A stretch of DNA of 64,000 nucleotides from an uncultured Candidatus Saccharibacteria bacterium (GCA_964525295.1 CAZGEO010000001.1:376662-440661), one strand, 5' to 3'; positions 7,584 to 52,881 are shown, counted from the stretch's first letter. Notes: generated from the sequence alone by a model not told the origin. Translations and numbers: made by a program.

Positions 7584-7585
7584 TT

Positions 7586-18500: not shown

Positions 18501-21500
18501 CCAATGAATTACCGTTCGTTACCGTCAATTTCCCTGCCGAACTATTGCCCGCAAAAGTCACATGACCGCCATTAACTGCCTTAATTTCAGACAATACATA
18601 ATCACCCACAGGCACATATGCCCCACTTATTGAGGCTGTTGCATGATTTGCATTCGCAATCAAAAGCTTACCCTGTTGTGGGGTATCTACTCCTTTCTGT
18701 TCATAATAAATTGTACCTGCGCTACCTCCTTTACCATAATTACCATTCTGATAGCGTCCACCGATTGCCAGTACCGTATTTTCGTTAATTGCTAAACCTT
18801 CAAGAGCTGAGTAATAAATTGCGATTCTACCGCCACTTCCTCGACCAGTTGAAGCTGCATACCCACCACCGTTTGCACGAATGACAGGTGTTCCTGTAGT
18901 TGAACTTAGCTTATTGGTGTCGATCCAGATACTTCCTCCTGAACCACTTGAACCCCAGCACCCTGAACGTGTTGGATGAGCACTCGCGTCGATTATGCCA
19001 TCGACCTTAAGCTCGTTTGCAACGGTCAGTTTCATTGCACCACCACCAGGACCACTGCCTGATTCATTATCTGAACCGCTTCCAAGTGCAAGGCTACCAT
19101 AAATTGTGCCATACGGAACTCCACCTGCATTATTTGGGCCATTACCACCATAACCACCATAAGAAGCTCCACCACACCAAGCAGCGCCATAACCTCTCGC
19201 ATAACCGTAACCTCTTGCTACAGCATCAATATACCCACCTGTTGCTACAGTAAGATTATCAACTGATAAGGCGACACCATAATCATTCGACCAATTTGAG
19301 TCACCGTTATCGTAACCTTGCATGACTAACAAACCATTACTTGCAACGGTAATATTGCCAAATTCCCATGGAGTTGTATCATTGTGAGCCCAAGTATTTG
19401 CATAAAGCGTTACGGCAGATGTTTGTGTCGCACCAATAGAAATATCATTTATGCCAACAACGTCACCCTTAAGACCTAATTCAACACCTTCAACTTCTAG
19501 TGTTTCACCAGGATTTTCGGGAATGTACTTAAGTGTACCTTCTACATTAACCTGCGATAACGTAGAATCACCCTGAATTCCTTCTTTCGATGATAACTGT
19601 AAACTACCAGTTGTGGCATCACCTTTGAACAAAACATGCCCTTTTCTCGTTGCAATTATTTTCTTGAAAATATAGTTACCTGCGGGAACATATGCTTCAC
19701 GAGGATTCCCACTCGAGCGACTGTCTATAAGCAATGTTCCTTGTTGAGAAAGATCAACACCTAACTGTTCTACGTATACCGTACCAGCGCCACCACCCTG
19801 CCCATATGAATCGTTTTGATTACCACCATATGATTGCAAGTGCAAAGAATCAATTGCGAAACCATTATTGTTTGCGTAATACAATGCAACACGACCACCA
19901 CTTCCTCGACCAATTTCACTATTTGCACGAATAATACCTGTTCCAGTTGTTGAAGCAATTGTCGTTGCCTCGACCCAAACTGAACCACCAGATGCAGTAG
20001 AATTCCAGCATCCTAATGCGCCAGAATATGCGTTTGCCGAAATTGCTCCTTCTACTGTTAGAGTTCCTGAAAGCGTTAACTTTATAGCACCACCACCACT
20101 TCCTCGCTCTGAAGCACCGCTTCCGAGAAGAACACTTCCATATATCGAACCGTAAGGAGTTTTAGCAGCATTATATGGACCATTACCACCGTAACCACCA
20201 TAGGAAGCACCTGCACAATTTCCCCACCCTGGACCTCTACCTACGGCATAACCGGTTGCATCGGCACTAACTACCGCTCCCGATTCAACTAGCATATCAT
20301 CAGCCAGAATTGTTACACCATAATCATTTGACCAATCTCCATCGCCGTTGTCGTAACCTTGTAACGTCAAAGTTGCACCAGTTCTTACCGTTAACTGCCC
20401 AAGACCACGGCAATCGAAAACTCCACCAGGAACACTTGAGGCATTCCAGGTTGTTGCTTGATCAATAATGATTCCAGGACACGTGCCAAGTTGCGCCACA
20501 AACATAATTGAAGGCGAAACTCCGGTTATACCGTTGCCGTCACTTACTCTAATTTGAATATTTTCTGTGTACGAATAGGTCGCAGTATTGGTAGTTCCGA
20601 CGCCGTTTGTTAGTGTTATTGTTTCAGGAGCTAAGGTTCCCAACCCAGGAGACACCTGATCATATGAAGAAACCGGATATAACGTTACAGAACCATTATG
20701 AGGTACCGTATTACCGTACTTGTCTTTTGCTGTTACGGTTAAACTAAAGTTTGCATCTACCAAAACCAAACTTGAAGATGGTACAACCTGATAGGAAACA
20801 ATTTGATCTGGCACAGTACTCACCGTGAAGGTAACAGAATATCCAGTTGCGTAACGCCATACATTCATGGTGTTATTATTGATTCCTGCAGTACTTCCGA
20901 GTGTCCACGTTGCGGTTAATTCACCCCATTGATCTGTTGTATGCTGTTTATTGGTTACTAAACCACCACCACTAGTTACTGTCCAATTAAAATCTGGAAC
21001 AAAAGGCACGCCATATCCTGCTGCATCGACTGCACGCACGCGTGGTGCTGGATTTAACGGTTGGCCTGCTGCACCAGAAATGCCGTTTCCTTCAACAATA
21101 ATAAGTGAAGCCATCGGACCAGAAACGGTAAAATCACTATCGTTAACGGAATTGCCACCATATTGCACCCATGGGGAATATACGCCACTTGCATTAACAA
21201 TTCGTGCTTGCCATTTGTATTGTTCTGATACTGTCAAACCTGTAACTTCAGCGTACCCACAGTATTGACTGATTTGTACGCCTGATTGATCGGGAATGTC
21301 GTTACAGCTTTTATTACTTGCCAAGGTTACCTGTCCACCGGTTGGGATATTTTGGAATGCATCGGTCTTTTTTCGCACTTCGATCTGCAAACGCTCGTTT
21401 TCGCCTTGAATATTTGAGGCGAAAGTAATCTTTTGGCTTGTTGTCAGATAATCAATATCTAGTCTGCGATTTACAAAAGAAGTTGTATTTGCAGTTTCGT

Positions 21501-28663: not shown

Positions 28664-28779
28664 GCTTGGCAACGACCTATTTTCCCAGGAGAAAAATCCA
28701 AGTATCTTCGGCGCTGGAGTGTTTCACTTCCGAGTTCGGAAAGGGATCGGGTGGGTCCACTCCGCTCTTGTCACCAAGC
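28664..28779 (-). rRNA. rrf: 5S ribosomal RNA (unlinked to the 16S-23S operon)
   Basis: Reverse complement reads GCTTGGTGACAAGAGCGGAGTGGACCCACCCGATCCCTTTCCGAACTCGGAAGTGAAACACTCCAGCGCCGAAGATACTTGG...GTTGCCAAGC. The conserved 5S loop CCGAACTCGGAAGTGAAAC and loop GCGCCGA(A/T)G are present. Helix I closes the 5' and 3' ends. Length is 116 nt. Confidence 0.8.
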
Positions 28780-34153: not shown

Positions 34154-34334
34154 GAAAAATAAGCGTAGAACGGTGATTCCTGCTGCGAAGCAAAATTTAA
34201 TAGGTAATAATTATTACCCATTAAGTATTAACAAAACACGACAATAACAGTGTTTTGAAATTTTTATGTTTGGATATTGGAGTATTTAAACATTTAAGTA
34301 CTCTAATAATTGAACAGGTTTTGTGACAAAACAA

Positions 34335-37490
<3,156 letters not shown>

Positions 37491-37995
37491 ATTATCAAAG
37501 TACTTAAAGTGTTTTTGGCTCTCGCCGACTTCATTTCTAAAAGAAAGAAGTACACTTTCAATCCTGTAAAAGAATTGTGAGTTCTCTTTTGAGAAAACTC
37601 AATTATTCCTTCACTTTTACCTACTTTAAACGAGCGTAAGCAGATTGTATCAAAGTTTTTTTTGGGATGCAATAGGTCACCGTCTAATTGGTGATTGATC
37701 CTTATTAATAGTTTAATAGTTAATATGTAATAACCTATTCAGAATTACCTATTAATTATTAAAGTTCTCTCTTACGAGGTGTGTTTGTTTTTATGTAGTT
37801 TCGAGTTTTCATCTTGCGATGCTTTACCTCGAATTTTTGATAATGCCCCTTTTTCCCATTGTCTTAAAAGACACATGGACCTGAGGGGAATAGTCGCACA
37901 TTGAATTTCTCAATGAGCTTCTATTGCTCCCGCAATCGAACCTTCGCTGGATGGTCCGATTCACTTTTCAGCACTTCACTGTTTAAACAGCGAAG

Positions 37996-38068
37996 TGGAC
38001 CTGAGGGGAATCGAACCCCTGACAACTCGCATGCAAAGCGAGTGCTCTGCCAGCTGAGCTACAGGCCC
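37996..38068 (-). tRNA. tRNA-Ala (anticodon TGC) in the 16S-23S spacer
   Basis: Reverse complement reads GGGCCTGTAGCTCAGCTGGCAGAGCACTCGCTTTGCATGCGAG...GGTTCGATTCCCCTCAGGTCCA. The anticodon loop is TT-TGC-AT. Confidence 0.9.
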
Positions 38069-38085
38069 GGGTCCAATAGATACAA

Positions 38086-38157
38086 TGGGCATGCCTGGTT
38101 TCGAACCAGGGACCACTGCATTATCAGTACAGTGCTCTACCACTGAGCTACATGCCC
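38086..38157 (-). tRNA. tRNA-Ile (anticodon GAT) in the 16S-23S spacer
   Basis: Reverse complement reads GGGCATGTAGCTCAGTGGTAGAGCACTGTACTGATAATGCAG...GGTTCGAAACCAGGCATGCCCA. The anticodon loop is CT-GAT-AA. Confidence 0.9.
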
Positions 38158-38200
38158 CTTAACAACCATGGTGTGGCGAGAAGACCGCTCTATCTCCTAA

Positions 38201-39748
<1,548 letters not shown>

Positions 39749-40016
39749 AAGGAGTCATTGACTCAGATCGAAGCTGCGATGCTATTAATTATCGCGTTTT
39801 CGATTTATTGTTTGTAGTTTAGTACTACTATTTTTGAATTGGTGCGGTTTCCCGCCACACCTCGATTGTTAAGGAGCAACCTTTCGGTTAATGTTCGAAA
39901 TTGTAGCACAAACGAATCTAATGTCAATCTCTACTATTATCCTGGGGTTCAAACTCTTCACTTTTGTTATAAGAGCAGTTGAAGTATACACCACCACAAC
40001 TCCCGTGTCAAATCAG

Positions 40017-42665
40017 CTACCCTGCCGTTTTAATTACTCGAAGCAAAAGATCTTTACTAATCGATCTTATGGGCTCATTCCCCTTGTTTGGCGCAATCAA
40101 CAACTCCTCAACTTGAGTATCATCAAAGAGCAACGCATATCTGTCATCCATAATTTTTAGTATAAATTCTCTATTTTCAACAACAAAAGCATATTCACCA
40201 GCATTATTTGTATACGTTGAATACTGTAGTGTCTTAAATTCAGGCTCATAAAGCCCAATTTGCACACCTTTAACCAAATTGCCATTAACTGTTTTAACAA
40301 TCCCTGTTACTTTTCCTTTATTAATGAGTACGTTTTTAACAACGATTACTGCCAAAGGCAACATAAATAGAAGTGTGTTTATAAATGTTGGAGAATAAAT
40401 CAGTACAATCGCTGAATATATAAAAAGCACTACATACACAGTATCTGCAAAGTATTCGACCACAAGACTCCAAAAACTACCGGCAATACTCAAGAACTTT
40501 TGCAAACCACCCACCTCAACTGGATCAATCGGAATCGAACAAACGACTGCACCTTTTACCTGCGCATCAATTTCTTCTCCTTTATATATCTTTTGGTATG
40601 CACCGTCAGTTTCAGTCAGAATTACTTTCGTTGGAAATTCATAACCTGCACGCTGCGCAAGAATTTTTATTTTCTTTTCGGTTTGAGTTAATTGAAAAAC
40701 ACCACGAGAATCAGTTACCAATGTACGCAAGAGCGATCCAGTTTCTGCATCATGAACACGTAATATTGCGCGAGCTACAGGATTTTTCGTTACCGAATCA
40801 TAGACAATCCCTGCAAGTCCTTGCTTACGTTTTTGCGTAGACAATGCAGCCATAAGCAAAGATCCCCAGAAATCGAACCCTGAAACAACAGCGAGGGTAA
40901 CAACCGCGAACCCACCACCCTCAATAAATGAACCGAATGCAGCCCCTTCTGAGCCAGAGTCATTTCCGGAAGAATCAATGTTTGTTGGAATCAACTGCCC
41001 GACAATCGGTAAAACGGATATTACATCAATAAAGTTATCTACAATAGAATCACCACCACCAGGTATAGAAGGGAATGCTGTAAGCGTAGGATTAATAGTT
41101 GCAGTCGCAGTTGGCGTTCCTGTACCCGTAGTTGTTACTGTACCAGTAACAGTAGTTGTTGGTGTTGCCGAAATTGACGGCGTTGCGGTTGCAGTAATAG
41201 TTAGCGTTGGCGTTGCAGTCACAGTAACGCTTGGTGTCGGCGTATCGGTTGGGGTATCGGTTGGCGTTGCAGTCGGTGTAGCAGTTGTAGTGGGAGTCGT
41301 TGTTGGCGTAGCTGTAGGAGTTGGAGTAACACCACCACTATCATCGAGATAGAAAACGCGAGCGTAGCGAGCGGAAGTTTCTCGATCAATAAATGAAATT
41401 ACTATATCGGTATCGACATGTTGAATCAAAACATTCTGCAAAATATTATCTGCAACCAAATCATCACCGACTTGTGACCACAAATTATTATTTGGATTAT
41501 ATTCATATACTGATGCAGTTGTTCCTCTATCAAGAATTGCCAGGTAACCACTAGCTCCATACTTAATTATTTGCGCACCATCTGCAGCAGGCAAGTCTTG
41601 CCCTCTTTGCACCCACCCACCGCCAGTATATTCATGCACATAGGTCTCAGCACTCGTGCTTGAAATTAGCACAATATTATTGTCATTATTAATAACTTGA
41701 GCATAATGATTGGCACTGCCAACTGGATATGAATAAGCAAGCGACATACCACCTGTTGTTGTTGTTGAGAAGATTCCATCGGAACGCAACAGGTAGAGAT
41801 TGCTATCATGATAAAAGAGAGCACTTGGACCAGAAATAATATTTACGCCAATTCCAGGCATACGAGAATAACCTCTTGCTAAAAGCGTACCAGTAGGTGA
41901 AATTGTGTTGAATGTAAAATATTCAGGAGCTTCAAGAGTGAATACGAAAGGATCAGTTGATATGACATTATAATCCTCAGATTGAACACCTTCTACAGTC
42001 AAGTAATTACCGTCAGAGAGACAAATAGACGCATTTGAATAAAAGGGAATATGTATAATGTCCGGATACGAGGGAATTTCCGTAGGATATGCAGGTGTTT
42101 CATAATAAGAATACGTAGATGTCATGACCCCTGATGAGATCCTTGCGGCAGCAAGTCTTGTAATAGGAATATTCGAACGCACAAGAGGAGAAGAACCAAA
42201 TTCATCGAAAATTAAGGAATAATTTCTACCAACCACAAAAACATCATTATTACTGCATGTTATCAAATTCGCTGGGAAATAATTCTCTACAGGCAAAATC
42301 CTATTTGCCAAAAGTTCATGTTGCGTAGACCTTATTTCATTTGCTGCATAACGCCTATCGTTGACCGCAGTGGCATTCGTATACAATAGATCAAACTGTT
42401 TCGTTACCTGATTAAATCTGTAATAGCTATCACTAGAATCTTGATACATGACAACATCATTATTTCCGTCCTTACCAATAAGTGGCACGAAATTGCCCCC
42501 GACACTAATTTCAGTCCATTCAGTAGTCGTTGTGCCTTTAACTTCAGACTTTTCATTCACTTCCTTCGATTGAGGAATATAGGAATTTTGCGATAACAAA
42601 ACGACCGCAGGCAAAAGGAGCAAAATCAAACTGACAAAAAAATATTGTTTTATCTGTGCAATCAT
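40017..42665 (-). CDS. Secreted 882-aa surface protein. It has an N-terminal signal peptide, a beta-rich domain, a Pro/Thr linker and a C-terminal beta-sandwich/2-TM anchor module paralogous to that of the giant protein.
   Basis: The signal peptide is MIAQIKQYFFVSLILLLLPAVVLLS. The PT-rich linker is (TPT)n. The C-terminal segments GIVYDSVTKNPVARAILRVHDAETGSLLRTLVTDSRGVFQL and TGIVKTVNGNLVKGVQIGLYEPEFK...YAFVV align with the C-terminus of the 4318-aa protein. The start overlaps the stop of the upstream 1499-aa gene (ATGA). Confidence 0.8.
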   Translation of the reverse strand: MIAQIKQYFFVSLILLLLPAVVLLSQNSYIPQSKEVNEKSEVKGTTTTEWTEISVGGNFVPLIGKDGNNDVVMYQDSSDSYYRFNQVTKQFDLLYTNATAVNDRRYAANEIRSTQHELLANRILPVENYFPANLITCSNNDVFVVGRNYSLIFDEFGSSPLVRSNIPITRLAAARISSGVMTSTYSYYETPAYPTEIPSYPDIIHIPFYSNASICLSDGNYLTVEGVQSEDYNVISTDPFVFTLEAPEYFTFNTISPTGTLLARGYSRMPGIGVNIISGPSALFYHDSNLYLLRSDGIFSTTTTGGMSLAYSYPVGSANHYAQVINNDNNIVLISSTSAETYVHEYTGGGWVQRGQDLPAADGAQIIKYGASGYLAILDRGTTASVYEYNPNNNLWSQVGDDLVADNILQNVLIQHVDTDIVISFIDRETSARYARVFYLDDSGGVTPTPTATPTTTPTTTATPTATPTDTPTDTPTPSVTVTATPTLTITATATPSISATPTTTVTGTVTTTGTGTPTATATINPTLTAFPSIPGGGDSIVDNFIDVISVLPIVGQLIPTNIDSSGNDSGSEGAAFGSFIEGGGFAVVTLAVVSGFDFWGSLLMAALSTQKRKQGLAGIVYDSVTKNPVARAILRVHDAETGSLLRTLVTDSRGVFQLTQTEKKIKILAQRAGYEFPTKVILTETDGAYQKIYKGEEIDAQVKGAVVCSIPIDPVEVGGLQKFLSIAGSFWSLVVEYFADTVYVVLFIYSAIVLIYSPTFINTLLFMLPLAVIVVKNVLINKGKVTGIVKTVNGNLVKGVQIGLYEPEFKTLQYSTYTNNAGEYAFVVENREFILKIMDDRYALLFDDTQVEELLIAPNKGNEPIRSISKDLLLRVIKTAG
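41080..41345 (-). repeat. Low-complexity Pro/Thr-linker coding repeats (GTNGGNGTNGC-type triplet periodicity)
   Basis: Plus-strand repeats of gttggcgttgcagtc / ggtgtcggcgtatcggttggggtatcggttggcgttgcagtcggtgtagca encode the (T/A)PT linker on the minus strand. Confidence 0.7.
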
Positions 42666-45600
42666 AATTCCTCTCCTGGATTATTCACCATTATCCAATT
42701 TACTGCAACATCATTCGGAACTGGCGCAACGCTCTTAATTGAAAACTCTCCACTTCCTGCGACTACATATAGTTGTGGAACCTGCCCTGTGACCGAAGCT
42801 GGTGTAACAACAATAACACTACTCGTAGTTACCAGCGAGGATTTGACAACAACTTCAACTTCTCCAGCTAAAATAACTGCCCTACCTGCCTGCTTCTTGC
42901 TCAGTTCAAGATTATTAAATGTAGCCCCTTCCGCCGAAATCCTTGCTGATTTAACGCCCGCAACATCAATTATAAAAGATTCACCCAACGATTTTATAGT
43001 AGATAGTGACATGGTAGCTGCAGTAATCTGTCCATCGGTCAAAAGATTTCCCTCATCGTCAATAAATAACCTGTCATTCACTGCGAGCGTGCGTGTTTTT
43101 GCTACATTAAACTCAGCCGTTGTTCCAACAAACCCCGAAGCAATTGCAAAATACGGCGTTTTAATACTTGTATCGGTCAAAGTACTCCAAAGCGTTTCTG
43201 AAACACCAACTGAAGCCGTTATATTTTCAAGAAAAACAGGGATTTTTGTCACCTTCTTACCTGAGGCATTGCTTTCTATCGAATTCCAATCAACAGTCGA
43301 AGCGCTGTTCCCTATCAATATTCCAAGACTATTCGTGGTTGCATTGCCACTATTTTCACTATCGCTAAACAGTGCGACACCAACCTTCAATCGTTCCTCT
43401 GTACCGTATTGTTGAACCAGTACTTCAGCAATTCCCTGTCTTTTTATTAAGTAAGGATTCGTATCCTCATTGTATGGTTTTGCTTCATCTGCAGTTCCGA
43501 TTACAACTCCAAGTTGAGAAAATGACGCAATGTCAATACTCTTTGACACTTTTGCAATGAACTTACCAAATGCACCATCTAGAGATGAAGAGATATCTTG
43601 TATTGCCACGATCTCGCCAGCAGACAACACCTCTGAAGATTTTGCAGCAATAGCATCGGCAGGCAAAGTAAACGCCATCGATTTCTCTGGAATTGATGTA
43701 GGTGTTGCTGAAGCCAACTGTCCAGTTATTGTTTTTAATGATTGCAGGTCAGTTTGTTGAGCTTTAATTGCTTCGACTAAATATGGCGTAAATTTACCAT
43801 AATCTAGAGCCATATACCCTTTGGTATCAACACTTACCAATTCTGGCATAATCGCAAATACTTCTTGTGCTATAAACCCTGTATTGTATGAACCGTCGTT
43901 TATTTGATTATAGTGAACACCACGCAACTGCAGAATTTTCGACAAACCATCACCTATCTGTACAACATTTGTTTTATATCTTGCATCTGAATAGGTAGTC
44001 CATTGATTTGCTCGCCCACGACCAGTAACAGCGGAAGTATTCGGAAGATCAATACGATATTCGGGTGCAGTCAACCCAAGCCCCAAATATCCCTCTGAAG
44101 ATAATCTCATCCCTAATACCTGCGTTGTTCCAGAAATTGTGTAAAAGCTCATCTGAGAAGAACGGTCACTACCAGACCAATTGACAGCAGCTGAATTTAT
44201 GATACCTGTTAACTGCGAATTTATTGCAGATCCATCATAACCATACGAAATATAAGCACCCAAAGTATCTCCAGCAAGAACCGCACTTGGGCTAGAAGTG
44301 GTACCGCGATAACGATTAGTTGCGAATAATGGGCCACTTGCAGTTGTATGATTGTAATATGTAACTTTAACTCCTCTATTTTCTGTTCCATCTCCAGAGC
44401 CAAGCACCTCAACTGCAGCAGTTGGAGCTGTTGTTCCAATACCAATACTCCCAGAATTGAGAATTGTCATTCGGGCGAGATTATTTGTGCCTAAAGTTAG
44501 CGCATGGTTAGTTCTAGTCGAAATAATGCCCCCAGCAATAGAATCGTTCCAACCTGTATTATGAGCCATAATATCTAACGTAATTGCACTGGTACGTGTT
44601 GCAATACGGCTGTTTGTGGTTCCATAATTGTCGATAACACTGCTCCACCCATTTGTATTTTCGAATGAACCTGCTGAACCAAAAAAGGCATTACCTGCTA
44701 CATGCAACTTTGTACCAGGTGCACCTGTACCGATACCAACATTTCCGGAACTCTTAACAATCAATGCTTTGGTTGCATTAGGATCTCCAGGTTGTAATTG
44801 AATATCTCCTGCCACATCACTTGCACCGTAAGAATTAATCAAAAATAGGCCATTACTAACCCCACCATTGTGCGAACCATAAGTGGTGAATTGCCCACGA
44901 GAGGTATCGCTTTGGAAACTTTCAATAGTATAACCGTACCCTGAACGAACAATCGAAGTAAAAGTTGAATTCGAATTGTTATTAATTTCGAAATGCGCAC
45001 TTGGTGAAGTCGTTCCAATACCTACTTTCCCATTATAATCGATCGTCAGGCGAGCATCTGCCAAGGTTGCATTACTGTTATCATTTGTACCATCATTCAA
45101 TATATGAATTTTTCCTCTAGCTGCATTATCGCCAAGCTGTTCTTGAACAATGGCAGATTTAGCAAAAGTTGGACCACTTTCTGAATAGCCTATACCTATC
45201 CCTGAATAAACTCCGTTGCCGATAGAAGTGCCGTTGCCGAAATGAGCAATAGAATTTGTTGCCAATTTAACCTGAAATGGAAAATATGGATTCGTGGTTG
45301 CCACCCCTACGTTTCCGGTTGCACCATCGATATAAAGTCTTCCTGAACCACCAGCATCTAGCGACAAGTCAAAATCCATACCTGAATCTGCCGATCCCAT
45401 GGCTAGTATTGAACCAATTCCACCACCAGAAAAATAGAATAATGATTCCCCAAGAAGTCGAATGGTACCACTTCCGCCACCACCATAAGCGCCAACATTG
45501 AGCGTTGACGTGTTTGCACCAAGATCAAGATTGTAGCCAGGTGACGCGGTTCCAACACCGACATTTCCCTCAATTATTGCTCCATTTGTTGGTGCGTTGC

Positions 45601-47161
45601 TTGTTTGATAATTGGCTCCAACCAGTAAACCTGCATTCGATTCTACCGTAAAAACCTTACTTCCTTGACTAAATAAACTGATACCGTAATACGTTGCATT
45701 ACTGTCAATGCCGATACCTGCATTTTGAGCGCCAATCGTTGCACTAATTATCTGCGCATTATAAGTTGCTGCATTTACCGTCAGCTTTGCTGCCGGTGAA
45801 TCAGTTCCGATGCCTACATTTCCACCTGCAAGAATACGCATTCTTATCGTATCATTTGTAAGAAATGCTAGATCATGGTTACTTACACCTCGAATAAGAT
45901 TGAGAGATTCTCCAGAAGTACGGCGAGATTCGAGCCACAGTTCTGGAAAACCACCAAGATAGCCATTACCAATGCGAGTTCTCATAATCGCAGAGTTATA
46001 CGTACCTGTGGTAGAGGTATTTTCAAAAAGCAATTGCGGAATATCTGCATCGGCAGAAGTAGTTCCAGATCCACTTACATGAAGAAGTGTCGAAGGGGTT
46101 GACGTACCGATACCTACTTTTCCATTTGATTTTATCGTCAATCGCTCGACCCTATCTATTCCCGTTGTCGCAGAAGTGTAAAAAGCAATTCTCTGAGGCG
46201 CAACGTCAGGAGAAACATTTCCATCGACTAAGAAATCAATCATTGCAGTACCTTGAACTGAAGATCCGTCATAAATTGCACCAAGGAAGCTCATCACTTT
46301 ATCGTTCACAATCGGAACTGCAGGCGCTGATAGGGTTCCCCTTGATCGAACCCCCTTAAACACACCTCTATTCGTACTTGTTTCAGTATTATCGGCGACT
46401 ACTATACTAAATCCAGGGGCAGTATTTTGAGCCGATATTACTGAGTAATCGGTTGTAATTAGACTTCCTGAGATACTGTTTCCATCGGAAACATGTAACT
46501 TTCCATACGGATTTGCTGTACCTACGCCCACATTACCAGCCGAAGTTATCGTCATTCGTGCGGTATTAGAAGTCAGAAACTGCAACGCATAAGCATCTTT
46601 GGTACCTAACGTAGCAGTGGCTCCGAAAGTATTACCACTCTGTTTAAAAAATGAATTGTGCGTAAACGCAGTTCCGGTTGTTGGATCAATTAACGCTTTT
46701 GCCCACAATGCAAAAGGAACTGAAGTAATTGCTTTTCTAGTAGAAAATACCTCTTCGTATTGATGCGGAGTTCCGCCACAGTTTGCGTTTGAACTGTCAG
46801 CTGCGACATTATTTGCATCAAAACAGATCTGAAGATATAAATCTTCGTAATTTGCGAGTGTTGCTGGCAAGGCTGCGACCTCGCCAAGAGCAGTAGAAAC
46901 AACTCCAGACGTTACCGTAATTGACCTATCTTCAGACCAAACTGCACTTCCACCAGAAGAAACGTTGTACAGCAGGAAGCGAAAATTATACGTTCCATTT
47001 GCTATATTCGTTCCATCTGCAGCGACCAATTTGCTTTGAAAAGCGATTGTACTTGTTGTAGCAGCGAAAATGACTCGTGAAGTGAACAAAGAAACAAAAA
47101 ATAGGCCGATACAAACAAGAATAAAACGTATAACACGAATGTATCGGCCACCTCTCCTCAT
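42662..47161 (-). CDS. Tail-fibre-like 1499-aa surface protein. It has an N-terminal signal anchor, GNVGIGT-type fibre repeats, an internal Peptidase S74 (endosialidase chaperone / intramolecular chaperone autoprocessing) domain and a ~350-aa C-terminal extension.
   Basis: The N-terminal TM is VIRFILVCIGLFFVSLF. Recurrent NVGIGTxxPxxKLHV motifs occur. The S74 signature is TYSDARYKTNV...GFIAQEVFAIMPELVSVDTKGYMALDYGKFTPYLVEAIKAQQ. The catalytic Ser codon is at 43988-43990, which is Ser1058. Confidence 0.8.
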   Translation of the reverse strand: MRRGGRYIRVIRFILVCIGLFFVSLFTSRVIFAATTSTIAFQSKLVAADGTNIANGTYNFRFLLYNVSSGGSAVWSEDRSITVTSGVVSTALGEVAALPATLANYEDLYLQICFDANNVAADSSNANCGGTPHQYEEVFSTRKAITSVPFALWAKALIDPTTGTAFTHNSFFKQSGNTFGATATLGTKDAYALQFLTSNTARMTITSAGNVGVGTANPYGKLHVSDGNSISGSLITTDYSVISAQNTAPGFSIVVADNTETSTNRGVFKGVRSRGTLSAPAVPIVNDKVMSFLGAIYDGSSVQGTAMIDFLVDGNVSPDVAPQRIAFYTSATTGIDRVERLTIKSNGKVGIGTSTPSTLLHVSGSGTTSADADIPQLLFENTSTTGTYNSAIMRTRIGNGYLGGFPELWLESRRTSGESLNLIRGVSNHDLAFLTNDTIRMRILAGGNVGIGTDSPAAKLTVNAATYNAQIISATIGAQNAGIGIDSNATYYGISLFSQGSKVFTVESNAGLLVGANYQTSNAPTNGAIIEGNVGVGTASPGYNLDLGANTSTLNVGAYGGGGSGTIRLLGESLFYFSGGGIGSILAMGSADSGMDFDLSLDAGGSGRLYIDGATGNVGVATTNPYFPFQVKLATNSIAHFGNGTSIGNGVYSGIGIGYSESGPTFAKSAIVQEQLGDNAARGKIHILNDGTNDNSNATLADARLTIDYNGKVGIGTTSPSAHFEINNNSNSTFTSIVRSGYGYTIESFQSDTSRGQFTTYGSHNGGVSNGLFLINSYGASDVAGDIQLQPGDPNATKALIVKSSGNVGIGTGAPGTKLHVAGNAFFGSAGSFENTNGWSSVIDNYGTTNSRIATRTSAITLDIMAHNTGWNDSIAGGIISTRTNHALTLGTNNLARMTILNSGSIGIGTTAPTAAVEVLGSGDGTENRGVKVTYYNHTTASGPLFATNRYRGTTSSPSAVLAGDTLGAYISYGYDGSAINSQLTGIINSAAVNWSGSDRSSQMSFYTISGTTQVLGMRLSSEGYLGLGLTAPEYRIDLPNTSAVTGRGRANQWTTYSDARYKTNVVQIGDGLSKILQLRGVHYNQINDGSYNTGFIAQEVFAIMPELVSVDTKGYMALDYGKFTPYLVEAIKAQQTDLQSLKTITGQLASATPTSIPEKSMAFTLPADAIAAKSSEVLSAGEIVAIQDISSSLDGAFGKFIAKVSKSIDIASFSQLGVVIGTADEAKPYNEDTNPYLIKRQGIAEVLVQQYGTEERLKVGVALFSDSENSGNATTNSLGILIGNSASTVDWNSIESNASGKKVTKIPVFLENITASVGVSETLWSTLTDTSIKTPYFAIASGFVGTTAEFNVAKTRTLAVNDRLFIDDEGNLLTDGQITAATMSLSTIKSLGESFIIDVAGVKSARISAEGATFNNLELSKKQAGRAVILAGEVEVVVKSSLVTTSSVIVVTPASVTGQVPQLYVVAGSGEFSIKSVAPVPNDVAVNWIMVNNPGEEL

Positions 47162-47301
47162 TGATTAAATATACTTGAAACAGAACAGGAAAACAAGGGT
47201 TTTACATGGAAATTTCGACACTTTTCATGTACCGTGGAACACGCGACAAATCAAGCAATTCAATGTTTCACTATATTTCACAGGCGTTGCCTTTTAGAAA
47301 C

Positions 47302-47374
47302 TGCGCCCGGCGGGAATCGAACCCACAACCGACAGATTAGAAGTCTGCTGCTCTATCCGTTGAGCTACAGGCGC
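47302..47374 (-). tRNA. tRNA-Arg (anticodon TCT)
   Basis: Reverse complement reads GCGCCTGTAGCTCAACGGATAGAGCAGCAGACTTCTAATCTGTCGGTTGTGGGTTCGATTCCCGCCGGGCGCA. The anticodon loop is CT-TCT-AA. Length is 73 nt. Confidence 0.9.
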
Positions 47375-47553
47375 ATACCGAATTATAGCAATTTCAACCC
47401 ATTTCCTCAACTGCCACTCCCCCATGAAGTTACACAAAAACGGAAAGAAGATATCCCCCAAAATCCCCGAAAGTTTGTTAAAAATGTTATACGGGCGTTG
47501 AATCCAGGTCGACCGCATGGTAAAATACGACTGTTAACTTAATATGTAACGCA

Positions 47554-48195
47554 ATGGCAATAATCCCTGAAATTCCCGCAATCATACTCAATCTCCCCAT
47601 CACACTAACCATAATCGCCATCACACGATACGTAATCGGCTTCAAAACCTGGAAAACCTACCCCACACTTGCTTTAACGCTCGCACTATTCGCTATCAAT
47701 CAGGCATCACCAAACATACTCGCCTCACTTTCTGTTTGGACACTTCTCACCGTAATCATAATCGGAACCGCACTTGCAACAAGAAAAGTCTTGCAGAAAT
47801 TCACCATGAATTACTACGCAAGAATTGCAACAATGTATTTAGGAGCGACTGTAATGTCACTTATCGCACTAGTCGTGTTAAACGCACTAAACATTGGATT
47901 CTCAATTTCCAACCAATTTCTTGGCATTGGCATATTTCTCATTGGATCAACCATCGATGAACTCGCGACATTACTCTACAAAAAAGATCGCCAAGAATTT
48001 ATTAGAAGAACAGTTTCAACCCTTGCAATTTCACTAATCTGCGGGCTACTTACGATTTGGCCATGGTGGAATCGCACTATAGCTGGACATCAAGAGATCC
48101 TACTATTCGTTCTTCTTGCAGACGTTGTCGTCGCAGCCTGGAGCGCATTACGACTTACAGAATATCTCAGATTTGCCTCACTTAGCAAAAACTAG
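47554..48195 (+). CDS. Polytopic membrane protein (6-7 TM), first gene of the ATP-grasp cluster. Possibly a 7TM partner analogous to the 7TM domains paired with RimK-related ligases.
   Basis: It is 213 aa and almost entirely hydrophobic helices. Its stop TAG (48193-48195) is 1 nt before the next gene's ATG. Confidence 0.55.
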   Translation: MAIIPEIPAIILNLPITLTIIAITRYVIGFKTWKTYPTLALTLALFAINQASPNILASLSVWTLLTVIIIGTALATRKVLQKFTMNYYARIATMYLGATVMSLIALVVLNALNIGFSISNQFLGIGIFLIGSTIDELATLLYKKDRQEFIRRTVSTLAISLICGLLTIWPWWNRTIAGHQEILLFVLLADVVVAAWSALRLTEYLRFASLSKN

Positions 48196-48196
48196 C

Positions 48197-49687
48197 ATGT
48201 TTGGTATCAAAAACACTTCAGAGTTCGCTCGCGATGTACTAGGAATCAATCAACGCAATCTTTCATTTGTACACCGCTTAAACCCTATTAAATACCGCAA
48301 ATACGCAGACGACAAATTGTTAGCAAAAAAGATATTCACCAAAAAGAAACTCAAAACGCCTGATTTATTCAAGATTATTAGAACAAAAGAACAGATCGAA
48401 TACATTAATTGGGCAGCTCTTCCAAAAAGTTTTGTTATTAAGCCAAATAAAGGCACACACGGCGCAGGAATCATTGTTTTCTACGGTAAAACAAAAAACA
48501 AACTCGAATGGATCACTCCAAGCATGGAGACAATGAATGTCGAACAAATCAAGCAACACATCGCCGACATTATCGATGGAAAATATTCTATCGACGGCAA
48601 ACAAGACGTCGCATTCTTTGAAGAACGAGTTAAAAATCACGCCAGCCTTAAGCCATATTCTTACAGAGGAATTCCAGACATTCGCGTCATCGTATTCAAT
48701 TCTTTCCCTATAATGGCTGAACTGCGATTACCTACAAAAGAATCAAAAGGCACAGCAAATCTTCACGCAGGCGGAATTGGCGTTGGCATCGATATCGGCT
48801 CAGGAATTACCACAACCGCGATACACCGCAAAGGATTCGATCTTATCGGCGATCGCTACAACCTCATCGAAAACACTTTAGATGACCCAAAACTCCCCCT
48901 AAGAGGAATCAAAATTCCTTACTGGGATAAAATTCTTAACTTGTCGGTAAAATGTCAACAAGTATCGAAATTGAAGTTCGTTGGAGTCGACGTCGTTATC
49001 GATAGAGAAAAAGGACCAATGATTCTAGAATTGAATGCTCGACCAGGACTAGCAATCCAAATCGCGAATCAAGAAGGATTACTTGGCAGAATCACGCAAG
49101 TTCAAAAATACAAGAAAAACAAAACAATAGAACAGTACGTTTCGCTTGCAAAGCACCATTTCGGTGGTGAAATTGAAGAACAAGTGGAATCAATGACAGG
49201 GCGCGAAATCATCGGATTAATCGAAAAAGCTACAATTACCCCATCTCAAAGCGTAATTGATCAGAAAAACAACAAAAAAAAGAATGCCAAAGAAACGGTT
49301 AAAGCAAAAGTAGATACAGGTGCCCTTAAATCGGCAATTGATTACAACCTCGCTGTTGGACTTGGTTACTCAGAGTTGATAAAGATCCAAGATATCATCA
49401 TGAAGAGATATGAATCGCTTGATGCAGCTCATGAAGTTCGTGAAGTTTACGATGAAAAGGTTAGAAAACACGAATTCGAAACAATAAAAGATTTCGTTGT
49501 AGTGAAATCAACAAACGGTTTCACCGTTCGAGCAGTCATCGAAGCAACTATTGCCATAGGTTCGGTAACCAAATCGTATCGACTCAACGTAAGCGACCGC
49601 TCCGACCTACTATACCCTATAATTATTGGGCGCAAAGACTTAAAAGAATTTTTGGTTGATGCCACAAAAGCATTCACCATGAGATAA
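48197..49687 (+). CDS. ATP-grasp (alpha-L-glutamate ligase/RimK-related) enzyme fused to a C-terminal retropepsin-like 'putative ATP-dependent zinc protease' domain (PF05618-type, DTGA motif)
   Basis: The N-terminal ATP-grasp region reads ...FVIKPNKGTHGAGIIVFYGK.... The C-terminal region has KAKVDTGALKSAI and ...YRLNVSDRSDLLYPIIIGRKDLKEFLVD, matching the clan-AA-like RimK-associated domain. The start is moved to the internal Met (MFGIKNTS), which abuts the upstream gene's stop. Confidence 0.7.
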   Translation: MFGIKNTSEFARDVLGINQRNLSFVHRLNPIKYRKYADDKLLAKKIFTKKKLKTPDLFKIIRTKEQIEYINWAALPKSFVIKPNKGTHGAGIIVFYGKTKNKLEWITPSMETMNVEQIKQHIADIIDGKYSIDGKQDVAFFEERVKNHASLKPYSYRGIPDIRVIVFNSFPIMAELRLPTKESKGTANLHAGGIGVGIDIGSGITTTAIHRKGFDLIGDRYNLIENTLDDPKLPLRGIKIPYWDKILNLSVKCQQVSKLKFVGVDVVIDREKGPMILELNARPGLAIQIANQEGLLGRITQVQKYKKNKTIEQYVSLAKHHFGGEIEEQVESMTGREIIGLIEKATITPSQSVIDQKNNKKKNAKETVKAKVDTGALKSAIDYNLAVGLGYSELIKIQDIIMKRYESLDAAHEVREVYDEKVRKHEFETIKDFVVVKSTNGFTVRAVIEATIAIGSVTKSYRLNVSDRSDLLYPIIIGRKDLKEFLVDATKAFTMR

Positions 49688-49706
49688 TATTTTACGTACC
49701 TTAGCA

Positions 49707-50612
49707 ATGAAGAAAAAGATTGCCATATTAATCCAAAAAGGATTCAAAAACAAGTTCGAGCCCCAGAATCTCGTTTCTACTTTCAATACTGCCGGATATC
49801 AAGCAGATATCATCACCATCGAGGATGTCTATGCCCTATATAACGAGAACGGCGATCAATTTTTTCACAGTGAATACGGTGACCTAAGAAACTATGACGT
49901 ACTACTTGTACGGGAAGTATTTGCTTACTTCAAATACGCACTAAACATCATTTCTTACATGAATAACCTCGGCAAAGTCGTCATTGACAACAATCTCTCG
50001 AGCGAAAAGATGATGATTAATAAACTGATCGACGGCCAACGAATCGTTCAGGCAAAATTACCTTTTCCACGAACCTATCATGCACACACACTCGCAAATT
50101 ATCTTAAATTGCTTCCTCAAATCGAAAAAGAATGCGGATTCCCATTAGTTATTAAGCATCGTTCAAGTGGAAAAGGCGCAAAAATCTATAAAGTCGAAGA
50201 CAGACTTGACCTAGAAAATCTTCTCAACGATCTTAATGAAGATAACAAACTTGGTAGATTTTATATTCAAGAATACCTTCCACTCAAGGCTGATTACCGC
50301 ATTCTCGTAGTTGCCGATCAGGTAGTTGGAGCTATGCTTCGCATACCTAAAAAAGGCGATTTTAGAGCGAATTTCTCGCTTGGCGGTTCCGTTAAACCTG
50401 CTGAACTAACCGCAGAAATGAAAGACCTTGCAGAAAAGGCAGCCAAAGCAACAAACGCAAACTTCGCTGGCGTTGATATCGTTTACACTCAAGACAACAA
50501 ACCATACCTCCTAGAAGTAAACCGAACACCCGGATTCCAGGGCTTTACACAAGCACACGGCATTGACGTCGCAAAAATCTTTGTTGATTATGTTGAAAAA
50601 CTGCTACAATAA
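49707..50612 (+). CDS. RimK-type ATP-grasp ligase (alpha-L-glutamate ligase family)
   Basis: ...RILVVADQVVGAMLRIPKKGDFRANFSLGGSVKPAELTAEMKDLAEKAAKATNANFAGVDIV...LLEVNRTPGFQGF matches RimK/ribosomal protein S6 glutamyl ligase motifs. Confidence 0.8.
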   Translation: MKKKIAILIQKGFKNKFEPQNLVSTFNTAGYQADIITIEDVYALYNENGDQFFHSEYGDLRNYDVLLVREVFAYFKYALNIISYMNNLGKVVIDNNLSSEKMMINKLIDGQRIVQAKLPFPRTYHAHTLANYLKLLPQIEKECGFPLVIKHRSSGKGAKIYKVEDRLDLENLLNDLNEDNKLGRFYIQEYLPLKADYRILVVADQVVGAMLRIPKKGDFRANFSLGGSVKPAELTAEMKDLAEKAAKATNANFAGVDIVYTQDNKPYLLEVNRTPGFQGFTQAHGIDVAKIFVDYVEKLLQ

Positions 50613-50615
50613 GAG

Positions 50616-51644
50616 ATGAAAATTGCAATCATAGGGATGAATCCCTACTACGAAAGCGACAGAATTCTTTACGAAGCATTAAAAGCTGGTCACGAGGCCG
50701 TATACCTTTCAAAGCGCAACATCATTGAAACAAATTTTTTCAACGATGGAAAATTCGGCGCATACTTTCAAATTCCGAAAAAAGAAGAACAGTACAACGC
50801 AATTGAAAATCTCAAAGAACTTGAACCTTTAATTATCAATCCCGGTACAGAATATCAACCCACAACAGAAAAACGTGGTTTTCTTGGTAACAAAAAAGAA
50901 AAGATAAAAGACCTATATGATATCAACTATTTCGACGCTTTTCTCTTCAGAGAAATCTCAAAAACACTTGAGTGGGCAACAATACTCGCCAACCACCTAC
51001 TATCCCATAAGAAAACAGTAATCGATCAGAAAATTGGTTCAGAAATGTATTATAAGTCAAAGCATGGAACCTTCTACAAGGCGACGAGCAATGATTTTCC
51101 TTACGCAAAAACGTTCGCCATTACCTCAAAGGCGTCACTATTAACCATGCTTGAGCATATTAGCTACCCATTAATAGTGAAGGTATCCGAAAGTTCGAAA
51201 GGACTAGGTGTCTACAAATGTGAATCGAAGAGCGCTGTCTTACACCTTCTCGAAGAAGAAGAACTGAAAGTTGGTGACTTACTATTTCAAGAATGCGTCG
51301 ATTACCGCGGAGACATAAGGGTTTTTGTTATAGGTAATAAAGTTCTCGGAGCAATGCGTCGCGAACCACAAGCAGGCCAATGGAAAGGAAATGTCGCGCA
51401 AGGAGCATCTGCATACCCTGTAGACATTGATGACTCGATAAAAAAACTTGCCCTTGACATCGTAAAGTTACAAAACTCAGAGTTAATCGGTGTTGATATT
51501 ATGCTCCCCAAAAGTGGTCCTGTAATAATTGAGACTAACAGAGCCCCACAATTCAAAGGCTTTGAAACTTCAACCGGCATAAACGTTGCGAAAGAGATCG
51601 TAACCTATCTTGAACAAAAACATGCCCAAATTTCACGAACTTAA
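50616..51644 (+). CDS. Second RimK-type ATP-grasp ligase
   Basis: ...IRVFVIGNKVLGAMRREPQAGQWKGNVAQGASAYPVDIDD...GVDIMLPKSGPVIIETNRAPQFKGF is paralogous to the upstream gene. It sits 3 nt after the upstream gene's stop. Confidence 0.75.
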   Translation: MKIAIIGMNPYYESDRILYEALKAGHEAVYLSKRNIIETNFFNDGKFGAYFQIPKKEEQYNAIENLKELEPLIINPGTEYQPTTEKRGFLGNKKEKIKDLYDINYFDAFLFREISKTLEWATILANHLLSHKKTVIDQKIGSEMYYKSKHGTFYKATSNDFPYAKTFAITSKASLLTMLEHISYPLIVKVSESSKGLGVYKCESKSAVLHLLEEEELKVGDLLFQECVDYRGDIRVFVIGNKVLGAMRREPQAGQWKGNVAQGASAYPVDIDDSIKKLALDIVKLQNSELIGVDIMLPKSGPVIIETNRAPQFKGFETSTGINVAKEIVTYLEQKHAQISRT

Positions 51645-52881
51645 AACTTCCTTACCCAATCTTGTTTTAGTACCCCTTGGAAAACAACATATTTCGTTCA
51701 TAACCTCACTACTTAACAACAAAGAGATTCAAAAAACTCTTTTTCGCATTCCTACTAAAGTCACTAACGAGAGACAACACAATGCAATTGAACGAATGTA
51801 TTCGTATGAGCAACCGAAAGAGATCACCTATGTTCTTACGCTTAAATCTTTCTTGAAATCAGAGAGTATCGGATTCGTAAAAATCAAATTGATAGATTGG
51901 AGCGTAAAAAGTTGCTACCTGTCTACAGCGATTCTTCCAGATCAAAAATACAGAGGCCAAGGCTACGCGAAAGCTGCCTACAATGCATTCTTCTCTTTCC
52001 TATTCGACATCGGAATCAAAAAAATATATGGACGAACCTATGAAAACAATACAGCGACAATTAAATTGAATTTCGCTACTGGCTTCAGATTTATTGGTCG
52101 CCAAAAAAACTTTATCATTTATCCGAACAAAACATCTTTAGATGCAATGTTTTTCGAGAAATTAGCCCCAAATATGCAAACCCAAGGCAACCTACCCTAT
52201 CAACAAACATTAGACGAACTAAGCGACCTCCAGCAAGAGCTTCTGACCAATCCTCAACTCACTTCAGAGAAATTAAACAAACGATTTTCAGAGGGCATTT
52301 CAAATATCGATCTCTCAAACTTACCTGCTGATTTACAAAAATATTTCGCAACCTTGAAAGATGGAAGTCTCACTCCAGAACCTCAGTTCTTCGAACACGC
52401 AAAAAGCCAACAATTTCAGAAAATCAACGGCGAGATGATTGCAAACTTACTAAAAAAATATCTAGATACATTTATCTCAATTTCCACTCACAATAAACGA
52501 AGCATACTTTTCAATCGATATTCAGGTACTTTAAAGTTGCCAGAATCTTTTGACTGTGACACAAAACAAATTCTTTACTCACTTACCCTAATTTTGGTGA
52601 AAACTTGGCGCACTTTCAACCAGAGCCTTGTTGGTATACAGGCGCTTTCATACGCAACTACCAAAGAATCTCAACGAGAAGAAGAGGTATTGGCAAAGCT
52701 ACTTACCGATCAACTAAGCCTTGATGAAATATCAGAATTCAATTTCAATGAGAGCATGCTCTACGCGCCACTCTCTCGTGAAACACGAGAACTCCTACGC
52801 ACCAACCTCCTTGGCAGAGACTATCCTCTTTCACTCAGTCAACTGTTTAGTGTAGTTGCAGCAGTAAAAACTGCTCTCTAA
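51610..52881 (+). CDS. GNAT acetyltransferase (RimL/RimJ-like) fused to an uncharacterised ~240-aa C-terminal domain
   Basis: The N-terminal 180 aa carry a GNAT core (...RGQGYAKAAYNAFFSFLFDIGIKKIYGRTYENNTATIKLNFATGFRF...). The C-terminal half has no family I recognise. It overlaps the preceding gene by ~35 nt. Confidence 0.6.
   Translation: MNKNMPKFHELKTSLPNLVLVPLGKQHISFITSLLNNKEIQKTLFRIPTKVTNERQHNAIERMYSYEQPKEITYVLTLKSFLKSESIGFVKIKLIDWSVKSCYLSTAILPDQKYRGQGYAKAAYNAFFSFLFDIGIKKIYGRTYENNTATIKLNFATGFRFIGRQKNFIIYPNKTSLDAMFFEKLAPNMQTQGNLPYQQTLDELSDLQQELLTNPQLTSEKLNKRFSEGISNIDLSNLPADLQKYFATLKDGSLTPEPQFFEHAKSQQFQKINGEMIANLLKKYLDTFISISTHNKRSILFNRYSGTLKLPESFDCDTKQILYSLTLILVKTWRTFNQSLVGIQALSYATTKESQREEEVLAKLLTDQLSLDEISEFNFNESMLYAPLSRETRELLRTNLLGRDYPLSLSQLFSVVAAVKTAL

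Follow-up and report, generated by a model that had tools for sequence, protein, structure and literature searches.

The fibre gene and its S74 domain

We analyzed a 64,000-nucleotide stretch of DNA (CAZGEO010000001.1:376662-440661 of assembly GCA_964525295.1; hereafter, the window) from an uncultured bacterium that, judging from its sequence, probably belongs to the Patescibacteria. At 42662-47161 on the minus strand, the window holds a single ATG-to-stop open reading frame (ORF) of 1499 amino acids (aa), the product of which we refer to as the fibre protein; its parts and its neighbors are listed in Table 1. A first-pass annotation of this DNA had described a tail-fibre-like protein with an internal Peptidase S74 domain followed by a long extension. 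This layout was borne out: about 340 residues (339; aa 1161-1499) lie beyond the end of the S74 domain, which is likewise not the last domain in 58 related proteins.

When the fibre protein was scanned against Pfam, Peptidase_S74 (PF13884) was the one and only family above threshold, matching aa 1058-1109 with an E value of 5.2e-13 and 49.5 bits (gathering score 22). A search of the PDB with the lone S74 segment was too weak, and a profile was needed. Built from the segment and 24 homologues (alignment A5), this profile matched solved S74 domains with E values from 1.9e-19 to 3.6e-5, including those of the phage S16 fibre (6f45, 1.9e-19), MYRF (7dc3, 5.4e-15), 8jov, T5 (8hqz), and GA-1 (3gud). 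Both the Pfam and the profile matches thus uphold the S74 signature claimed at first reading. Ser1058 and Lys1063 of the motif SDARYK are invariant columns of A5 (S23 and K28), and the Ser/Lys dyad, the possible absence of which had been raised, is therefore present on proper alignment, with the serine codon where it had been placed. By analogy with T5 pb1, which is cut at Thr1263/Ser1264 (PMC4690869), and with the Bdellovibrio fibre Bd3182, which cuts itself at S782 and is no longer cleaved when carrying S782A (PMC10769870), the predicted scissile bond is Tyr1057/Ser1058.

We also analyzed the dyad in those proteins in which an S74 domain is followed by the same terminal module as in the fibre protein (see below). 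Serine with lysine at +5 was retained in 52 of the 52 that could be assessed, 40 of them as SDxxxK and 12 as SxxxxK; the count uses the S74 domain closest to the terminal module, and 6 of the 58 proteins end short there and are not assessable. This complete retention argues that cleavage is under selection in the S74-then-terminal-module layout and, at the level of sequence, makes a release of the C-terminal part by autoproteolysis plausible.

At the other end of the protein, a hydropathy scan detected only one hydrophobic segment, at aa 8-26, where AlphaFold2 (AF2) placed a helix (aa 4-27). The segment closes with …VIFA, followed by ATT; its counterparts in 20 homologues (alignment A6) have a small residue, A or G, in last place, and a conserved N-terminal domain begins right behind it. 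Rather than a membrane anchor, the segment is therefore more likely a cleavable Sec signal peptide, and what had been called a transmembrane (TM) signal anchor is better read, given the homologue alignment and the conserved domain, as a signal peptide plus an attachment domain. The N-terminal domain follows the pattern I.FQ..L....G..I..GtY.f.F.lY....GG...W.E...v....Gv....LG ... TRKAITSVPFA, that of the 20 homologues being I.FQG.L....G..v.dGtY...F.lY....GG..lW.E…PR..L.SvpYA, and AF2 predicted beta strands across aa 39-115 with a predicted local distance difference test (pLDDT) score of about 85-92. A phmmer search matched the same domain to the N-termini of over 35 fibres whose last domain is S74, the mid domain, or the terminal module described below, and we presume that it is the cell-proximal attachment domain.

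Between this domain and S74 lies a fibre shaft with eight capping-loop motifs, G(N/K/S)(V/I)G(V/I)(G/A)T..P...L, at aa 209, 347, 447, 532, 616, 711, 806, and 904. When compared with PHROGs, aa 180-1150 matched tail-fibre families, namely phrog_9942 (3e-39) and phrog_18345 (8e-36), and in most matching families the S74 part aligned with the very end of the profile. A phmmer search of the PDB matched the fibre protein to the mosaic adhesive trimer (MAT) fibres of Bdellovibrio, i.e., 8oml (8.7e-7), 8ond, 8ojn, and 8ol4 (E about 1e-6).

Several lines of evidence indicate that the extension is truly coding. Window positions 41338-47245 agreed with the Logan assembly of SRR11582163 at 5908 of 5908 bases, and the exact fibre protein was also present on a 659,080-bp NCBI contig. 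Across the extension, the coding frame contains one stop, the terminal one, while the other two frames contain 23 and 31, and the GC content per codon position matches that of the remainder of the gene. Together with the homologues found for each part, the identical independent assembly, the sole open frame, and the uniform codon-position GC support this conclusion; a stop codon hidden just after the chaperone by a sequencing error, which the first-pass annotation had considered, is effectively ruled out by the independent assembly and the frame statistics.

The region after the S74 domain

We then examined the extension itself, which AF2 modeled as a monomer (aa 1141-1499, 42-sequence alignment). 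Two parts were predicted with confidence, a mid beta-rich domain (aa 1168-1312, pLDDT above 90) and a terminal module (aa 1421-1495, pLDDT 83-93), and between them lies a connector (aa 1316-1419) with a pLDDT below 40, which is probably a short intertwined stalk. A word-based homologue search with the extension only (aa 1151-1499) gave no match at E<=0.01, and the matches of a first search with S74 plus the extension as query were mostly driven by S74.

By sequence, the mid domain matches neither Peptidase_G2 nor a family in Pfam, and it distantly resembles parts of two collected proteins (P0208 and P0197). An alignment search (A3) placed it in a very large family without a Pfam model, with best E values of 1e-43 to 1e-129, scores that are owed largely to two rows of the query alignment other than the window's own. 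Named members of this family come from Zixibacteria, Patescibacteria, Bacteroidota, and one thaumarchaeote, and the domain in the fibre protein is a divergent member. The fold it shares with phi29 gp12 (Table 1) is that of an appendage chaperone with a beta-stranded body.

The terminal module has the C-terminal beta-sandwich fold of tailspikes. Its Foldseek matches were 7eea, 9k4a, 7w1d, and 4urr (Sf6), and its matches in BFVD were proteins named "K1 lyase C-terminal domain." In a scan with the corresponding Pfam family, PF24146 (K1-lyase_C), two of nine relatives scanned alongside the fibre protein reached 27.4 and 30 bits. C-terminal beta-sandwiches are a typical feature of tailspikes (PMC8822698), and the C-terminal domains of tailspikes and depolymerases are credited with a part in trimerisation or folding and possibly in carbohydrate binding (PMC10653864). 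With two end modules of phage type, the extension is not an orphan.

To what extent the layout recurs became apparent from the ends of other proteins. Four S74 matches from Patescibacteria (P0001, P0013, P0037, and P0046) run 200-400 aa past S74 and share with the fibre protein a similar end of ~100 aa, with the pattern …G.a.I.aG…v.v.s..v…SkIfVT…G.F.Ik…P…d..F.WwIV. From these five ends we built a profile (A1), which in a search of 1.84 billion representative proteins matched 3175 clusters at E<=1e-3, of which 487 reached E<=1e-10. Among the 146 best matches with a scored module, the module lies at most 5 residues from the C-terminus in 100, and 31 others have nothing behind it but a low-complexity tail of 31-120 aa, in most cases rich in Pro, Thr, and Glu. 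The fibres that carry it span 100 to 4651 aa. Pfam detected S74 in 28 members of a 47-protein sample and covered the module in at most 7 (PF24146 at E<=1e-3). We further considered 84 proteins in which 300 aa or more precede the terminal module: S74 was found in 45, the mid domain in 17, and GNVGIGT/capping-loop motifs in 62, and no S74 was detected in 39.

In all, we collected 58 other proteins in which S74 is followed by the same terminal module, with a gap between the two of 18-268 aa (median 108 aa) that is often coiled coil. One of them, P0212, a 1502-aa "tail fiber domain-containing protein" from a Parcubacteria group bacterium, has the same plan of signal peptide, N-terminal domain, shaft, S74, linker, and terminal module, without the mid domain. 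The order S74, mid domain, terminal module was seen only in the fibre protein among the collected sequences; P0233 has the mid domain, a partial S74, and the terminal module, and in P0058 a mid-like domain comes after S74. All named members with the terminal module are Patescibacteria (Moraniibacteriota, Portnoybacteria, Parcubacteria, and "Patescibacteria group"). At NCBI the homologues are annotated just as "tail fiber domain-containing protein," and NCBIfam has no family for the fibre protein. Together, these results show that the order of S74 and then the terminal module is widespread among Patescibacteria and not a one-off. Since the module ends thousands of differing fibres, after S74 or after the mid domain, we suggest that it is a generic assembly or retention handle.

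A separate observation concerns four relatives from Patescibacteria (P0001, at locus L002, and P0076, P0077, and P0079), which carry two tandem S74 domains before the terminal module. The first domain has SDxxxK and the second ST(R/E)E(E/A)K, an arrangement that would give two successive potential cleavage sites.

Genomic surroundings

The window is part of a cellular chromosome. Genes for capsid, portal, terminase, tail, or integrase proteins were not found within the 64 kb, in a scan that covered about 23 of the 35 ORFs of at least 150 aa, and all scanned ORFs with matches were housekeeping, surface, or restriction-modification (R-M) genes. They include genes for leucyl-tRNA synthetase (LeuRS), ComEC, YidC, RecR, an M32 carboxypeptidase, a GH18 protein, an ATP-grasp/7TM cluster, an R-M pair, and a 4318-aa LamG protein. 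With rRNA and tRNA genes also among its neighbors, the fibre gene is, as the first-pass annotation had it, not accompanied by phage structural genes. A fibre homologue in a Patescibacteria metagenome-assembled genome, P0046, adjoins the ATP synthase operon. That this small-genome bacterium probably belongs to the Patescibacteria is suggested by the small (659-kb) contig, by the 5S gene lying apart from the other rRNA genes, and by the lineages of all named fibre homologues; LeuRS has a single match, at 38% identity, labeled Chloroflexota.

The start codon of the downstream gene overlaps the fibre stop codon, and the two genes are probably co-translated as a two-gene unit. The 882-aa product of the second gene begins with a hydrophobic segment and a large N-terminal region, continues with a PT-rich linker of ~80 aa, and contains four further TM-like segments; the protein also gave two weak matches to CarboxypepD_reg-like beta-sandwiches. 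It may be a partner of the fibre in the membrane. NCBIfam has no family for it, and no similar gene was found downstream of P0046 in L003, the sole other fibre locus compared (L002 and L004 were left out). Scans for promoters and terminators gave nothing above background; a promoter-like site at 47410-47382 is a consensus match only.

Other features of the window are noted for completeness. The 23S rRNA match is 3140 nt long against a model of 2925 positions, which suggests insertions. Directly upstream of the fibre unit and on the opposite strand, 47554-52881 (+) encodes a 7TM_transglut membrane protein, an ATPgrasp_ST protein fused to a Zn_protease/retropepsin-like domain, two RimK-family ATP-grasp ligases, and a GNAT acetyltransferase, and looks like a peptide-ligase or modification system. 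The giant 4318-aa ORF at 9529-22485 (-), with three Laminin_G_3 (concanavalin-like) stretches, is probably another surface protein, and a C-5 cytosine DNA methylase beside an NgoFVII-type C-terminal-domain protein at 6459-8563 (-) is probably a type II R-M pair.

Table 1. Parts of the fibre protein, followed by neighboring features, in window coordinates
Feature	Position (strand)	Residues	Basis or remark
Signal peptide (predicted)	47060..47161 (-)	aa 1-34, MRRGGRYIRVIRFILVCIGLFFVSLFTSRVIFA then A	Hydropathy, AF2, 20 homologues
Conserved N-terminal beta-rich domain	46682..47059 (-)	aa ~35-160	phmmer, A6, AF2
Fibre shaft	44042..46681 (-)	aa ~161-1040, ~880 aa	Motif scan, PHROG, PDB matches
Peptidase_S74 intramolecular chaperone/autoprotease	43682..44041 (-)	aa 1041-1160	Pfam, profile vs solved S74, alignment A5
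Ser1058 codon, predicted nucleophile	43988..43990 (-)	Ser1058	Aligned to the serine of SD..K in 6f45 and to the S-to-A site in MYRF 7dc3
Lys1063 codon, predicted general base (Ser+5)	43973..43975 (-)	Lys1063	Spacing as Ser1264/Lys1269 in T5 pb1
Mid beta-rich domain	43226..43645 (-)	aa 1173-1312	Decoration/cement-protein and phi29 gp12 C-terminal chaperone fold
Connector	42968..43225 (-)	aa 1313-1398, …LFIDDEGNLLTDGQITAATM…	Low confidence as monomer; weakly like pre-terminal segments of P0185 and P0140
Terminal beta-sandwich, K1-lyase_C-like	42671..42967 (-)	aa 1399-1497, …GRAVILAGEVEVVVKSSLVTTSSVIVVT…GEFSIKSVAPVPNDVAVNWIMV	Profile A1, AF2, Foldseek, BFVD, Pfam
882-aa membrane protein gene	40017..42665 (-)		ATG overlaps fibre stop by 4 nt; ORF list
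tRNA-Arg(TCT)	47301..47375 (-)		Immediately upstream, upstream boundary of two-gene unit; ARAGORN, Rfam
16S rRNA	38200-39750 (-)		Just downstream of fibre unit
tRNA-Ile and tRNA-Ala	37995-38157 (-)		After 16S in the rRNA order
23S rRNA	34329-37468 (-)		After the two tRNA genes in the rRNA order
5S rRNA	28664-28778 (-)		Unlinked, about 5.5 kb beyond 23S, protein genes between

Readings of the fibre protein and comparison with known systems

From these observations we infer, with moderate confidence, that the protein is a Sec-exported, homotrimeric surface fibre of the phage-tail-fibre type, similar to MAT fibres, whose S74 domain would shed a 442-aa assembly cassette. In S74 proteins, folding starts at the chaperone, and the cut N-terminal to the serine needs a correctly formed trimer. 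The fibre protein would thus be exported through Sec and lose its signal peptide, its N-terminal beta domain would hold it at the cell surface, and three chains would associate via their C-terminal modules. S74 would nucleate folding of the triple beta-helix, and Ser1058, activated by Lys1063, would cut Tyr1057/Ser1058 once the trimer is correct. The 442-aa C-terminal fragment, i.e., the chaperone and the cassette, would then leave and expose the mature fibre tip, the cassette acting as a shared assembly or retention handle and not as a determinant of specificity. Such a sequence of events is known from T5 pb1, in which S74 self-cleavage depends on the trimer, the chaperone leaves, and the tip is unmasked (PMC4690869). 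The earlier suggestion of a phage-derived fibre used as a cell-surface appendage therefore stands as the best reading, given the cellular context and the MAT-like features, but cellular S74 fibres as such are already known (PMC10769870).

Several points weigh against this reading. It is odd that a fragment destined for shedding should carry two well-folded, conserved domains. The AF2 model is of a monomer and hence does not show trimerisation of the cassette or its contact with S74. The mid domain is without the motifs GDYLISS and GHAMKD of its family and without the SYNAFTGSHY found upstream of it, and the terminal module scores 17.6 bits against PF24146, for which the threshold is 27 (E 0.0055, 66 of 70 positions). 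No relative of the fibre was found among GTDB representative genomes. Finally, the N-terminal region is likened to that of MAT fibres, in which a signal peptide also precedes a conserved beta-rich domain (~130 aa in MAT), by description.

An alternative is that S74 serves as a trimerisation node without cutting, or that the cut fragment stays bound, with the beta domain and the sandwich forming a distal, ligand-binding tip. The extension does fold confidently into two domains of the sort located at the business end of phage spikes, the C-terminal fin of P22 is an uncleaved auto-chaperone, and for depolymerases it has been proposed that the C-terminal beta-sandwich is a carbohydrate-binding module (PMC10653864). 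However, there would be no obvious reason to keep serine and lysine in all 52 proteins without catalysis, the interface between chaperone and tip in T5 pb1 is weak and the chaperone departs, and the terminal module is conserved over thousands of differing fibres, unlike a specificity tip. We therefore regard a retained tip as unlikely.

Still less probable, in our view, is that the fibre is mainly a scaffold for delivery and assembly and that function resides in the released, secreted 442-aa trimer, which might act on a host cell as a soluble lectin or adhesin, for instance. The fragment would be a self-contained trimer of S74, beta domain, and beta-sandwich without a membrane anchor, and the dyad is retained. 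Yet the scans detected neither a catalytic nor a toxin-like domain in the fragment, a shaft of ~1000 aa would be a costly scaffold, and the terminal module, which follows either S74 or the mid domain, has no evident route of release in the 39 of 84 proteins without a detected S74; its conservation across differing fibres fits assembly or retention better.

That the gene belongs to a phage or a prophage remnant is essentially excluded. Every domain is of phage type, the PHROG tail-fibre matches are strong, and a tRNA-Arg gene, tRNA genes being classical integration sites, lies immediately upstream. Against this, the ORFs scanned in the 64 kb include none of the phage genes sought and the neighbors encode rRNA, LeuRS, ComEC, YidC, and RecR, the protein has a Sec-type signal peptide and an N-terminal domain common to cellular fibres, and GenBank phages match its S74 part only. 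No relative was found in IMG/VR by protein or by terminal-module alignment (A7), a negative of little weight, given the small number of peptide patterns searched. The weakest alternative, an artefact in which a missed stop or a frameshift fuses an S74-terminated fibre gene to a downstream gene, has nothing but the unusual architecture in its favor and is effectively refuted by the 5908 identical bases of the independent assembly, the frame stops (1, 23, and 31) and even codon-position GC, the 58 independent proteins with S74 and the same terminal module, and the same overall layout in P0212.

Beyond the preferred reading of a MAT-like fibre that sheds its assembly cassette, we also considered a broader proposal, which is tentative and rather doubtful. 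The post-S74 cassette and the SYNAFTGSHY cassette might together be a dedicated, lineage-wide system of the Patescibacteria for assembling and launching host-binding fibres on the outside of an ultra-small cell bounded by a wall. In it, the terminal sandwich would hold the C-termini of the three chains, the parts exported last, at the envelope, with the 882-aa membrane protein as a possible anchoring point, and trimerisation would trigger S74 autoproteolysis and so arm the fibre by unmasking its tip. Were this true, the host to which an episymbiont attaches would depend to a large extent on such fibres.

The published work that we found on host attachment by Patescibacteria (the candidate phyla radiation, CPR) concentrates on type IV pili, and our literature searches found no paper that ties Patescibacteria to tail-fibre-like or S74 proteins. 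As the fibre gene shows, phage-derived, MAT-like fibres are encoded in such genomes, and its study uncovered a large, uncurated family in which an internal, self-cleaving type of S74 chaperone is followed by a conserved tailspike-type end module. The terminal module (3175 clusters) and the cassette of SYNAFTGSHY plus beta domain, which are without an adequate Pfam model, are targets for curation and structure determination. If cleavage occurs, the fibre would be a bacterial counterpart of the logic of MYRF, i.e., trimerise, then cut; if the biology is simply that of a shed chaperone, it is a well-annotated example and no surprise.

We finally compared the fibre protein with known systems, beginning with those that resemble its end. 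In tailspikes and depolymerases (PF24146; 7w1d, 9k4a, 7eea, and 4urr), the sandwich directly follows the catalytic beta-helix and not an S74 domain, and the copy in the fibre protein falls below the Pfam threshold. In the comparison with the phi29 gp12 auto-chaperone (3gqh) and with decoration and cement proteins, the mid domain differs in that its sequence matches neither Peptidase_G2 nor a Pfam family and that the motifs of its own wider family are missing. In five Bacteroidota S74 proteins (P0015, P0034, P0051, P0053, and P0054), a sorting domain of the type IX secretion system (T9SS; PF18962), a beta-sandwich of ~100 aa, lies C-terminal to S74, which sets an example of a domain placed after S74 that has a role in export or sorting and is then discarded. 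A T9SS sorting domain was rejected for the fibre protein itself, as PF18962 was not detected in it and no T9SS is expected in the organism. As a further combination, P0009 joins a prepilin N-methylation signal (PF07963) with S74.

MYRF likewise has a mid-protein S74 domain (ICA), and its self-cleavage parts an N-terminal trimer from the C-terminal remainder (PMC3742443, PMC8326128). In MYRF, however, the remainder is membrane-anchored and the released part is a transcription factor, whereas here the N-terminal part would be an extracellular fibre and no TM segment follows S74. A C-terminal tether as in MYRF was ruled out by the hydropathy scan, which found only the N-terminal segment. The phage S74 fibres (K1F endosialidase, T5 pb1, S16 gp37, and GA-1 gp12) share with the fibre protein S74 itself, serine with lysine at +5, and a position directly after the triple beta-helix; they differ in that the fibre protein has a signal peptide instead of a virion-attachment N-terminus, an internal S74, and a cellular context.

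The closest counterpart is the S74 subgroup of the MAT fibres, for example Bd3182. Bdellovibrio has 21 cellular MAT fibres, of which 13 end in S74 with SDxxxK (PMC10769870). Like these, the fibre protein is a cellular, non-phage protein with S74 and SDxxxK and a long shaft, trimeric there and predicted to be so here, along which the capping-loop motif V-G-G/N-x-x-x-P-x-x-x-L recurs, in eight copies in the present case; its sequence is similar to the solved fibres, and the domain mosaicism of its relatives matches the "tip-swapping" described for MAT (PMC10769870). The two differ in that S74 comes last in MAT, while ~340 aa follow it here, and in that Bdellovibrio is a diderm predator, while the present bacterium is presumably monoderm and ultra-small. 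Together, these comparisons suggest that the fibre protein fits the MAT kind, so that a phage-type fibre used by a cell, S74 included, is a known kind; what is new is the family-level pattern of an internal S74 domain followed by the terminal module.

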